Source of the DNA: an uncultured Clostridia bacterium
Lineage (GTDB): Bacteria; Bacillota; Clostridia; UMGS1883
NCBI GenBank assembly: GCA_947589005.1
Contig: CANPZO010000002.1
Span: 7,713-71,712, forward strand
Direction of reading: 5' to 3'
Length of the DNA stretch: 64,000 nt
Below are positions 15,893 to 37,725 of the stretch, piece by piece; the first letter of the stretch is position 1, and every line of letters begins with the position of its first letter. The position numbers and the translations under genes were made by a program. The notes below the pieces were generated by a model. That model was not told the origin of the DNA, ran no database searches, and worked only from the letters and a program-made list of their open reading frames with translations.

Positions 15893-15940
15893 TCAACCTT
15901 TTGGTTTAACCGTATAAACTTTTTTGAACTTCCCTTTTTT
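15893..15940 (+). promoter_or_regulatory. Conserved upstream element copy 1 (aaccttttggtt...ataaacttttttgaacttcc)
   Basis: One of three copies (also 33066..33112 and 37652..37725), each about 45-50 bp upstream of a start codon. Confidence 0.6.
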
Positions 15941-15991
15941 GATAAGCTGTTGTAAAATATGCTTAGGTAAAGTTTTCAGGGAAGGATGTGG

Positions 15992-17855
15992 AATGATGAA
16001 AAATATTATCGGAATGGTTCTGGGGCTGGCTGTCGTGCTGACTGCGTCAGCATGCAGCGCGGCGGAAAACGACAGCGGCAACGCTTCGAGCTTTATCCCC
16101 GACGCCAGACGGACTCAGACCATTTATTTTTGGGACGAGGGAAATGTCCCGGCCACCACAAGCTATACCGTCAACAACGGCAATTACTTTGATCCGCCCG
16201 AGTTCCGGCCGAATATGATTTTTTATCCGGCGGACGAGGGTACGCAGATAAAGGGCGCCGTGATGATAAATCCGGGCGGGGCTTTCATGTTCCGTGGCGA
16301 CAATGAAGGCGCTCCGGTGGCGAGAATGCTCAACCGTTACGGCTATCAGTGCTTTGTCGTCAATTACCGGCTCCGTCCCTATACCCAGGAGGAGGGCGCC
16401 CTCGACCTGGCGAGAGGCATAAGGTTCGTGCGGAAACACGCCGACATCTACGGCATCGACCCCCGGGATATAGCGTCAATCGGTTTCAGCGCCGGAGGAA
16501 TTCTGAGCGGAGAAGTGGCCATGAACTTTGACGGGCTTGTGAACGGGACCGCCATCGATAGTGGCTATGTCCCCGATGAACTGGATCAAGTGAGCGCCGA
16601 CTTGGCCGCGGAAGGGATGTTCTATTCATTTTACGGCAGGCTAAGCGTGGCGTCCCTCGACGTCGATAAGTTTCGGGAGGCCGAGCTGCCGCCAACCTAT
16701 GTCTGCTATGGCAGCAACGAGGTGTTCCGAGGTCAGATCGAAAATCACATTGTCGCCCTCCGCGAGGCGGGTATCCCTGTCGAGACTAATATGCTTGAGG
16801 GTCTGTACCACGGCTTTGCCTCGGGCGGCGGCTGGGGAGATGATTTTGACCGCTGGCTGAGCGGGGTTTTCGCGGAAAACGGCGGGGAGCTTACCGCTGA
16901 CTTTGCCTCGGCGGAACTGCGCGGCGGCGAGCTGACATACTCCCTCGACATAAAAGGGAACCCCGACAGAGCCGACATAATAGTCGCCTTTTACGACAGC
17001 GGCGGGACATTGGCGGGCGTGAACATAAATAAGCCGGAGGGCACGATAAACGCCGGTGGCGGAGGCACGCTAAAGCTGTTCCTGTGGGAGAAAGGGGCGC
17101 TCAGACCACTGACCGCGGCGAAAACCCTGCGTTTCGGCGGCGAACGGGAAACTCACCTCAACAATGTACTCGCCGGAGCGGACGGCAATATCCACTACAC
17201 CTACATTCTTCCGGCGGGGTACGACGAAAGCAAAACCTATCCCATGCTGATGACCTTGCCCGGCTGGAGCAATCTGTTCAATACCATCGAGACGACGCCC
17301 CTTACACAGAACCGTTACGCCGAGGGCAACGCGGCCGCGTGGACCGAGCTGGGAGGGGACTTCATCGTGGTTTCGCCCAGCCTCACCGACTGGGGCGCGA
17401 AATCGGCCCGTCAGACTGTTGAGCTTGCCGACTATTTTGTGGAAAACTTCCCCGTTGACCCAAAGCGGATATACGCGGCGGGCTTTTCCGCCGGAGGAGA
17501 GACTCTTTCGAGGGCGGTTGACATGAGGCCGGAGCTGTTCGCGGCCTATCTGCATATCTCGTCCCAGTGGGACGGCGGCTTTGAAAACGCGGCCTCCGCG
17601 CGTCTGCCGGTGTATATCTTCATAGCGGAGAACGACGAATACTACGGCTCGGCTCAGGCCCGCCGGGCATACGCTTCTCTTCGGGAAGCCTACGCCGCCG
17701 AGGGCATGACGGATGAGGAAATCGACGGGCTGCTGGTTCTGGACGTGCGGGACGATGAGTTCTTCAACGATCTGGGCATATACAGCTACCATGGCGGCGG
17801 AGGCGTCGCCGCAAACCAACAGGATATTATTTTGTGGATGTTAGGGAGGAATTAA
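15992..17855 (+). CDS. Secreted lipoprotein with two alpha/beta-hydrolase (esterase) domains separated by the recurrent YD..G.L/F.W..PL module
   Basis: Signal 'MMKNIIGMVLGLAVVLTASAC'. Domain 1 has 'NPGGAFMF' and the 'GFSAGG' nucleophile elbow. Domain 2 has 'GFSAGGETLS' (esterase / PHB-depolymerase-like). The middle carries 'AFYDSGGTLAGV...LFLWEKGALRPL'. Confidence 0.8.
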
Positions 17856-17857
17856 AA

Positions 17858-36528: not shown

Positions 36529-36542
36529 AGGAGGAAATTATC

Positions 36543-37391
36543 ATGGAATTTGTTACATTAAATAACGGAATTAAAATGCCAATGGAGGGCTTCGGCGTGT
36601 TTCAGGTGCCGGACCCTGCGGTGTGCGAACAGGCGGTGCTTGACGCCATCGCCAGCGGCTATCGCCTCATCGACACTGCGGCGGCCTATATGAACGAGGA
36701 GTCCGTGGGCGCGGCCGTTAAAAAGTGCGGCGTTCCCAGGAGCGAGCTGTTCATCACCACAAAGCTGTGGGTGCAGGATTCAAGCTATGAAGGGGCGAAA
36801 AAGGCCATCGAGACCTCCCTTGAAAAGCTGGACATGGACTACATCGACCTTTATCTCCTGCACCAGCCCCTGGGCGACTACTACGGGGCGTGGCGGGCCA
36901 TGGAGGAGGCGTATAAAGCCGGCAAGCTCAAGGCTATCGGCGTGTGTAACTTCTATCCCCATGTTCTCGCCGACTTCTGCGAGACCGTGGATGTTATCCC
37001 CGCGGTAAATCAGGTGGAGCTTCACCCCTTTTTCCAGCAGGAAAACGCCCTCAAGGTCATGAAGGACTACGGCGTTGTTCCCGAGGCATGGGGCCCCTTT
37101 GCCGAGGGCAAGCACGGAATTTTCACTCACCCCGTTTTGACCTCAATCGGCGAAAAATACGGCAAGACCGCCGCTCAGGTCGCCCTCCGCTGGAACGTGG
37201 ACCGGGGCGTTGTGGTAATCCCCAAGTCGGTACACAAAGCGCGCATGGAGCAGAACATGGATATATGGGATTTCAGTCTCAGCCCCGAGGACATGGAAGC
37301 CGTTGCCGCCCTCGATCTGGGCCACAGCGAGATAGTCAATCATTTTGACCCGAATTTTGTTAAGATGCTGCACGGAATGAAGGTTCATTAA
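36543..37391 (+). CDS. Aldo/keto reductase
   Basis: RBS AAGGAGG. AKR motifs '[11 protein letters not shown]', 'LFITTKLW', '[13 protein letters not shown]'. Confidence 0.85.
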
Positions 37392-37651
37392 ACGCTGGGG
37401 CGGCGGCTTTGTCCGCCGCCTTAAACCTTTAGAATTGGAATAAAAAATTGTCGCTGAAACACATTTTGTCATTTCTCCAAAACTTCGTAAACGCCTTCGG
37501 CGTTGTTTGTCGCTTTTACTTAAATTCAATGTTCTTTTGCGCGGCAAAAGAACCAAAAGCGCCGGGGCCCTCGCCATGGCCCCGGACCCCTCAAGGCGCT
37601 TAAGGGGCCTGCGGGCCCCTTAAGAATCCCCAAAACTTGTTTGCCGCCGCA

Positions 37652-37725
37652 ACTGCTTAAACCAAAAGGTTTCTTTGAACCTTTTGGTTTGGCGGCATAA
37701 ACTTTTTTGCACTTCACTTTTTTGA
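37652..37725 (+). promoter_or_regulatory. Conserved upstream element copy 3, with a perfect 14-bp inverted duplication of the aacc-tttt-ggtt hairpin and extended -10 'tgataaaat'
   Basis: 'aaaccaaaaggtttctttgaaaccttttggtttggcggcataaacttttttgcacttcac'. Confidence 0.6.

Follow-up and report, generated by a model that had tools for sequence, protein, structure and literature searches.

Three copies of a conserved promoter element, most likely the operator-promoter of an uncharacterised clostridial LysR-type regulator

The window analysed here is a 64,000-nucleotide stretch of DNA from an uncultured Clostridia bacterium (contig CANPZO010000002.1, positions 7,713 to 71,712), and its subject is a short element that recurs ahead of three operons encoding esterases, an iron-type alcohol dehydrogenase (Fe-ADH) and flavodoxin-like proteins. 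Genes were annotated with Pfam and NCBIfam and follow one another on the + strand in the order LysR-1 (13329), an SDR gene (~14948), copy 1 of the element, the esterase operon, a response regulator and histidine kinase pair (24772-26854), a DUF362 protein, two unknown proteins, LarE, LarB, an ArsP-like permease, LysR-2, copy 2, operon 2, copy 3 and operon 3. The element copies, the operons behind them and the proposed regulator are listed below, with promoter and operator assignments as predicted from the sequence.

15886 to 15958, + strand: copy 1, predicted operator-promoter of the esterase operon, with the dyad AACCTTTTGGTT at 15895-15906, ATAAAC at 15914-15919 and ACTTC at 15928-15932
15953 to 15958, + strand: TAAAAT, the predicted -10 of copy 1, without a consensus -35; predicted transcription start ~15965
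15993 to 23981, + strand: target operon 1, comprising a tandem alpha/beta-hydrolase lipoprotein (15993-17855), a 1285-aa fusion protein (17834-21691) and an esterase (21858-23981)
31765 to 32661, + strand: LysR-2, the proposed regulator (298 aa), with HTH_1 and LysR_substrate domains and with orthologues that adjoin the motif elsewhere
33054 to 33130, + strand: copy 2, predicted operator-promoter of the Fe-ADH operon, with the dyad at 33067-33078, ATAAAC at 33086-33091 and ACTTC at 33100-33104
33125 to 33130, + strand: the predicted -10 of copy 2, within TGC-TACAAT; poor -35 (TTCCGT) and predicted transcription start ~33137
33161 to 37391, + strand: target operon 2, comprising a YqhD-like Fe-ADH (33161-34330), a hydrolase (34544-35689), a Cu_amine_oxidN1-flavodoxin_4 protein (35665-36528) and a DkgA-like aldo/keto reductase (36501-37391)
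37659 to 37741, + strand: copy 3, predicted operator-promoter of the flavodoxin / DUF362-flavodoxin operon, with the main dyad at 37678-37689, ATAAAC at 37697-37702 and ACTTC at 37711-37715
37736 to 37741, + strand: the predicted -10 of copy 3, within TGA-TAAAAT; an additional inverted dyad lies at 37659-37671
37768 to 40205, + strand: target operon 3, comprising a flavodoxin_4 protein (37768-38250) and a DUF362-flavodoxin_4 protein (~38465-40205)

The first-pass annotation had described an element repeated three times upstream of genes, and this was borne out by a search of the 64-kb window with the 39-nt consensus AACCTTTTGGTT-N5-G-Y-ATAAACTTTTTTG-M-ACTTC at up to 3 mismatches, which found exactly three copies, all on the + strand (15895-15933, 33067-33105 and 37678-37716, with 2, 0 and 1 mismatches respectively), and no match in 100 dinucleotide-preserving shuffles (chance expectation 0). 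The copies read AACCTTTTGGTT-TAACC-GTATAAACTTTTTTGAACTTCC at 15895, AACCTTTTGGTT-CAAAG-GCATAAACTTTTTTGCACTTCC at 33067 and AACCTTTTGGTT-TGGCG-GCATAAACTTTTTTGCACTTCA at 37678, with a 19-nt core, ATAAACTTTTTTGMACTTC, that was identical in 3/3. Scores from a weight matrix built without the window sites were 39.3, 37.6 and 28.1 bits for the three copies, against 11.1 bits for the runner-up position in the window and 1.1 for the best shuffle. A fourth candidate of 11 bits at 43400 on the - strand was rejected, being a plain TTGACA-17-TACAAT promoter without the dyad that probably belongs to the PadR operon.

Some details of the first description needed adjustment. The gap that separates the end of the element from the start codon, given as 45-50 bp, was found to be 59, 55 and 51 nt in copies 1, 2 and 3, and the inverted repeat of copy 3, given as 14 bp, has perfect arms of 13 nt (37659-37671 / 37678-37690), the 12-nt dyad AACCTTTTGGTT occurring there an additional, fourth time in inverted orientation (37660-37671). 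The extended -10 (TGn) ascribed to every copy is present in copies 2 (TGCTACAAT) and 3 (TGATAAAAT) and absent from copy 1 (TTGTAAAAT). A small hairpin had likewise been assigned to each copy; copies 1 and 2 have no stable fold (z = -1.4 and -0.55) and, because they fold no better than shuffles, the 4-bp hairpin is better read as a dyad in double-stranded DNA.

The element is held in strict register with a -10 sequence, the gap from ACTTC to the -10 being exactly 20 nt in 3/3 window copies (TAAAAT, TACAAT and TAAAAT). With the transcription start predicted from the -10 alone and set 7 nt after it, the centre of the dyad fell at -64.5 in all three copies, the AT.AAC box at -51 to -46 and the ACTTC box at -38 to -34. 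The hexamer 17 bp 5' of the -10 was TTCCCT, TTCCGT and TTCACT in copies 1, 2 and 3, and a two-hexamer sigma-70 scan passed copy 3 alone (TTCACT-17-TAAAAT with TG), with copies 1 and 2 failing on the -35. A review of LysR-type regulators places their regulatory site near -65 (between -80 and -50), with weaker activation sites that overlap the -35 (PMC11495319). Judged by sequence, the layout of the element, with its dyad in the regulatory range and its boxes over a poor -35, fits that of a putative LysR-type activator site.

Sites of the same design were found in other genomes (loci are referred to below by L numbers), and an alignment of 19 non-redundant sites from 12 genomes (Lachnospiraceae, Desulfosporosinus and other Clostridia) is free of gaps over 75 bp. 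The shared skeleton was GTTTnAACC-N4-GGTTnnnaC, AT.AAC, N8, ACTTC, N20, TAtAAT (full alignment consensus G-t-t-t-n-A-A-C-C-T-t-t-n-G-G-T-T-t-n-n-a-C-t-n-A-T-n-A-A-C-(N8)-A-C-T-T-C-(N20)-T-A-t-A-A-T), with ACTTC invariant (19/19 sites) and the -10 in register, often with TGn. The dyad reaches 22 bp, for example GTTTATACC-TTTA-GGTATAAAC in L025, and its symmetry is even-spaced (A-N10-T in the core and G-N20-C on the outside). Conservation was limited to discrete blocks, the positions between them varying freely between genomes, and these blocks and the strict register of the -10 point to a protein-binding operator fused to a promoter, and not to a mobile repeat or an RNA.

An exact search for AACCTTTTGGTT-N7-ATAAACTT (20 specified bases) across 185,579 species genomes gave 12 loci, of which 7 were genuine (3 in Lapin-008__bin63, 1 in a second Lapin metagenome-assembled genome (MAG), 2 in Lachnospiraceae and 1 in an unclassified MAG) and 5 were chance matches in Bacteroidota and an archaeon that lacked the rest of the skeleton. 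All 7 genuine loci also had ACTTC and a TAnAAT -10 at equal distances, though the pattern required neither, and a relaxed-pattern scan of metagenome contigs gave 3 loci that represent 2 distinct sites, both genuine. The genes behind the scan-found sites encode aldo/keto reductases (AKR), FMN reductases and similar proteins. All 7 true sites lay ahead of the same kinds of gene; many copies in unrelated contexts, which would mark a generic repeat, were not seen in the scan of 185,579 genomes. A dispersed repeat of the repetitive extragenic palindrome (REP) or miniature inverted-repeat (MITE) kind was rejected, the 3 window copies and 3 exact matches in the related MAG being all co-directional with the same gene families downstream. 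A structured RNA element was rejected on the folding of copies 1 and 2 and on the lack of an Rfam match at the element, the sole Rfam match in the window being a tRNA at 52429-52512. Literature searches for the motif string, or for LysR with this gene set, found no relevant work: the string itself appeared only in Ehrlichia PCR primers, and a paper on Acetobacterium woodii lysR-adhE describes another gene arrangement and reports no site.

No regulator gene other than the LysR-2 orthologue was consistently linked to the motif. LysR-2 ends 406 bp before the motif (copy 2) in the window, and in 7 other genomes (L006, L017, L020, L022, L025, L027 and L030) the motif lies 2-75 bp after the stop codon of a LysR-2 orthologue. 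This distance was 48 bp in L006 and 2 bp in L017, both found by pattern and analysed by tblastn, and 6-75 bp in L020, L022 (Desulfosporosinus lacus), L025, L027 and L030. The orthologue is a few kb from the motif in L028 and L029, and further motif copies head other operons in L022, L027, L028, L029 and L030. Homologues of LysR-2 number thousands, the best 120 of them all at least 57% identical and from Clostridia, and the orthologues at motif loci are 54-70% identical. The neighbourhoods of eight diverse LysR-2 orthologues were also examined, and in most of these Fe-ADH, esterase, FMN reductase, flavodoxin_4 and AKR genes come after the LysR gene in the same orientation; a matrix made from pattern-derived sites only scored 15.6-50.9 bits in 7/8 of these LysR-fetched loci, with the best shuffle at no more than 9.4.

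The recognition helix hardly varies among 24 LysR-2 orthologues ([S/P]TAVIKQIxLLE), where LysR-1 has QSAISQQV, and four cysteines (C117, C162, C174 and C239), which lie within the effector domain or shortly ahead of it, are nearly invariant as well, which makes a redox or electrophile sensor possible. No NCBIfam equivalog reached its cut-off with LysR-2, and the nearest solved structure by sequence was BenM, as a weak match (E = 5e-13). LysR-1 (13329-14213) was rejected as the regulator, being 24% identical to LysR-2, with a different recognition helix and no tblastn homologue in the other fetched loci. The earlier suggestion of an activator-type site for one of the two LysR regulators is thus supported by comparative evidence and narrowed to LysR-2.

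A related skeleton was also found beside divergently transcribed LysR paralogues of the same clade. In L023 (Clostridiales CHKCI001-like) a second LysR, 42% identical to LysR-2, is divergent from a flavodoxin_4-AKR operon, and the intergenic region aligns in register (AAACTTTTCATT / AATAAC / AATTC / -10 TATAAT). On the Pusillibacter faecalis megaplasmid (L031; pMM59_01 KJS55_RS14935) a 40% identical LysR, the one paralogue at this identity found by a search of a plasmid collection, is divergent from an operon for flavodoxin, AKR, cupin and CMD (carboxymuconolactone decarboxylase) proteins, and ATAAAC-N5-GTTTAT, CATAAC, ATTCC and TATCAT were recognised by eye in matching order in the intergenic region. 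The paralogues (40-42% identical) have the same target families as LysR-2 and a related arrangement of dyad, ATAAC, A(A/T)TTCC, ~N19 and -10, but differ in being divergent, in an odd-centred dyad (ATAAAC-N5-GTTTAT) and in AATTC/ATTCC in place of ACTTC. The same skeleton accompanies this LysR clade in the divergent textbook arrangement too, and we consider these paralogue skeletons the strongest indirect argument for the LysR protein as the binder of the element.

We regard it as likely that each copy is a complete activator-dependent housekeeping-sigma promoter joined to an operator bound by LysR-2 (31765-32661). Starting from the sequence conservation, register and genetic linkage observed directly, we infer a transcription start, binding, activation as the direction of regulation, and a signal. 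One LysR-2 dimer would anchor on the dyad GTTTnAACC-N4-GGTTnAAAC, centred at about -64.5, and the second dimer of the LysR-2 tetramer would contact the AT.AAC and ACTTC boxes over the poor -35 (TTCnnT); once the inducer is sensed, the complex would enable RNA polymerase to use the conserved TAnAAT -10, in line with the 'sliding dimer' model. The three promoters would in this way co-regulate secreted esterases, the YqhD-like aldehyde reductase, the DkgA-like aldo/keto reductase and flavodoxin-like proteins.

Several observations weigh against regulation by LysR-2. The canonical T-N11-A is absent from the dyad, no T/A pair 12 positions apart being conserved across its 22 bp, and the AT.AAC and ACTTC boxes have no general dyad symmetry in the 19-site alignment; a T-N11-A reading in which ACTTC forms the left half-site (ACTTC-N7-GAAGT) was considered and rejected, since it fits L015 and L018 alone. 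Copies 1 and 3 and the sites in L010, L015 and L018 have no directly adjacent LysR gene, the L023 orthologue P0095 has no site beside it, and part of the linkage evidence comes from loci that were selected for carrying a LysR gene. LysR-2 and all its orthologues are co-directional with and upstream of the target, not divergent from it, and no motif was found upstream of LysR-2 itself. A terminator-like hairpin, identified by eye, separates the LysR gene from the site in L006, L020, L022 and L027, and autoregulation via the same site is unlikely because the LysR gene is co-directional and this hairpin intervenes in several loci.

Were the site instead that of a different, unlinked transcription factor, such as a CRP/FNR-like dimer encoded elsewhere, the adjacency of LysR would reflect shared cluster function only. 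CRP/FNR boxes are typically palindromes of 5-N4-5 geometry, which is the geometry of the core dyad TAACC-N4-GGTTA, without T-N11-A, and the sites that have no directly adjacent LysR gene (L010, L015, L018 and window copies 1 and 3) would agree with such a factor. This is nevertheless unlikely, as no CRP/FNR-type family match was found among the genes examined in motif loci, a dyad centre of -64.5 falls off the usual class I positions, LysR-2 orthologues directly adjoin the motif in 7 other genomes and the divergent LysR paralogues have the same skeleton in their shared intergenic regions. It is quite unlikely, too, that a duplicated or portable promoter cassette was copied before different operons, with likeness through common descent and not through a shared regulator. 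Such a cassette would account for a 19-nt identity among the window copies that takes in positions variable between genomes (TTTTTTG), for homology with a MAG of 94-96% identity that breaks off immediately 5' of copies 1 and 2 (15886 and 33054), for a gene behind copy 3 that differs between relatives and for two Desulfosporosinus sites that are near-identical over the whole promoter. The discrete blocks are, however, kept in strict register over a large phylogenetic distance, which needs purifying selection on function, and in L027 and L030, where sites of one genome can be paired, the two members differ at every position outside the blocks. Descent by duplication can go together with regulation by one factor and does not take its place.

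The OmpR-type response regulator of the neighbouring two-component system (24772-25437) had been named as a further candidate binder, and the comparison gave this poor support. The regulator and its histidine kinase lie inside the cluster, an orthologue with 61% identity occurs in the Desulfosporosinus cluster, and the related MAG has a homologue of 48-58% identity near its counterpart of copy 1; yet no orthologue was detected by tblastn (E<1e-10) in L006, L017, L020, L025, L027, L028, L029 or L030, leaving L022 and L011 as the only 2 other motif loci with one nearby. With a site that is an inverted and not a direct repeat, and a regulator and kinase pair that accompanies DUF362 genes and not the motif, we consider this binder very improbable. 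A shared alternative-sigma promoter, the other proposal made at first pass, is hardly credible in view of a housekeeping-type -10 (TAtAAT, often TGn-extended) conserved in register, the lack of any sigma or anti-sigma family match among the genes examined in motif loci and a conservation that reaches 40 bp 5' of the -35, beyond what a sigma factor reads, even though ACTTC is invariant, sits at the -35 position and resembles the AAC/ACTT-like cores of some extracytoplasmic function (ECF)-type -35 elements. A sigma-54 promoter (GG...GC) was rejected on spacing, which is GG-N13-GC and not N10 in copies 2 and 3, with both dinucleotides missing in copy 1. A MerR-type operator between -35 and -10 was also rejected, with the conserved blocks lying 5' of the -35 and the spacer not conserved; MerR genes are present in L018 and L029.

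The proposed LysR-2 promoters resemble the classical LysR-type promoters benA (BenM), catB (CatM) and cbnA (CbnR) in a LysR-family regulator linked to its target, a dyad of high symmetry at about -65, conserved contacts that reach a weak -35 and strict spacing to the -10. They differ in that the dyad here is AACC-N4-GGTT, even-spaced and 22 bp long, whereas theirs is ATAC-N7-GTAT or T-N11-A, and in that the regulator gene is co-directional and upstream and the downstream boxes are not recognisable half-dyads. The core enzymes match those of another known module, the E. coli aldehyde-response pair yqhD and dkgA, which stands under one local regulator, YqhC, as both enzymes here would under LysR-2. 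YqhC is AraC-type, whereas the regulator proposed here is LysR-type; both enzymes in the window score under the equivalog cut-offs, and the regulon here adds secreted esterases and flavodoxin_4, DUF362, CMD and cupin proteins.

Among the target genes, the Fe-ADH had PRK15138 (YqhD-type) as its best model and the aldo/keto reductase was closest to DkgA, both under the equivalog cut-offs just mentioned, and identical Fe-ADH proteins were found on ENA metagenome contigs. The secreted 1285-aa fusion of operon 1 (17834-21691) combines CMD, Cu_amine_oxidN1, cupin and carboxylesterase domains, and a 1314-aa homologue of its gene in L027 is preceded by its own motif copy. The set that recurs downstream of the motif across loci comprises Fe-ADH, AKR, FMN reductase / flavodoxin_4, BD-FAE and other esterases, CMD, cupin and SDR proteins. 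These enzyme families suggest a role in detoxifying or processing reactive carbonyls (aldehydes), quinones or aromatic esters, and the conserved cysteines of LysR-2 would fit a thiol-reactive signal.

The proteins at 35665-36528, 26919-28352 and ~38465-40205 join flavodoxin_4 and DUF362 domains with one another or with Cu_amine_oxidN1 'stalk' domains, and these fusions suggest cell-surface or extracellular flavoproteins and Fe-S proteins. Genes for the nickel-pincer cofactor, LarE (TIGR00268, 347 bits) and LarB (NF033503, 287 bits), were identified at 29165-31751 and in L022 at 7211-10531; an ArsP/SaoE-like permease and a DUF362 protein accompany them directly 5' of LysR-2, and no LarA or LarC could be recognised in the set of genes checked. 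The motif in Desulfosporosinus itself lies ahead of a Lactamase_B-LarB-LarC operon.

The window belongs to an uncultured gut lineage of Clostridia, and the nearest genome was that of the rabbit-gut MAG Lapin-008__bin63, with 94-96% nucleotide identity. Homology with the related MAG starts at 15886, just 5' of copy 1, and the module of LysR-1 and SDR (13329-15886) is not upstream there; a plain TTGCAC-17-TACAAT promoter lies between LysR-1 and SDR in the window (~14299-14327). Homology with the relative L012 resumes at 33054, just 5' of copy 2. The spacer between LysR-2 and copy 2 (32665-33054) is variable, measuring 1.3-1.4 kb in L012 (5027-6300) and L005 (2615-4025), and in L012 it encodes a 368-aa protein with an N-terminal XRE-type helix-turn-helix. 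Around copy 3, the segments 37431-37655, which is GC-rich with a perfect 10-nt inverted repeat (TTAAGGGGCC/GGCCCCTTAA at 37600-37623), and 37742-38443, which contains the 160-aa flavodoxin gene, are both missing from the 94-96% identical MAG (L009). Because both flanking segments are absent, promoter 3 stands directly ahead of the DUF362-flavodoxin gene in L009, and the additional dyad there is direct, not inverted.

At more distant loci, the leaders from a motif promoter to the next called gene are unusually long in L022 (Desulfosporosinus lacus), at 7030-7211 (~180 nt) and 10760-11468 (~700 nt), and gave no Rfam match; they could hold an unannotated open reading frame or an RNA element. In L010 (5203-6699) a tyrosine-integrase gene lies directly 5' of an AKR / FMN-reductase / DUF4405 operon that has two motif copies and no adjacent LysR gene, and this operon may sit on a mobile element.

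Taken overall, the element is most likely the conserved operator-promoter of an uncharacterised clostridial LysR-type regulator, which would make it part of a real but fairly ordinary regulon and one that leaves the understanding of the LysR-type family unchanged. A more far-reaching proposal, which we hold to be doubtful though conceivable, is that LysR-2 represents an uncharacterised and widespread clostridial subfamily (with an even-spaced operator, a co-directional gene without an autoregulatory site, and four cysteines) that acts as a thiol-based electrophile sensor for aldehydes or quinones and switches on a partly extracellular detoxification. If true, the detoxification system would consist of cell-surface esterases, Cu_amine_oxidN1-anchored flavodoxins and DUF362 Fe-S proteins, with possible relevance to xenobiotic or plant-phenolic metabolism in gut Clostridia. 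The regulon proposed here supplies a concrete operator sequence that can be tested, together with a candidate regulator, for genes found as a recurring set in many gut and anaerobic Clostridia, whose regulation has so far been undescribed. With the motif, regulon membership could be predicted, and reporters or inducible promoters could be constructed. The element would in addition document a LysR-type site outside the T-N11-A and divergent-gene rules.

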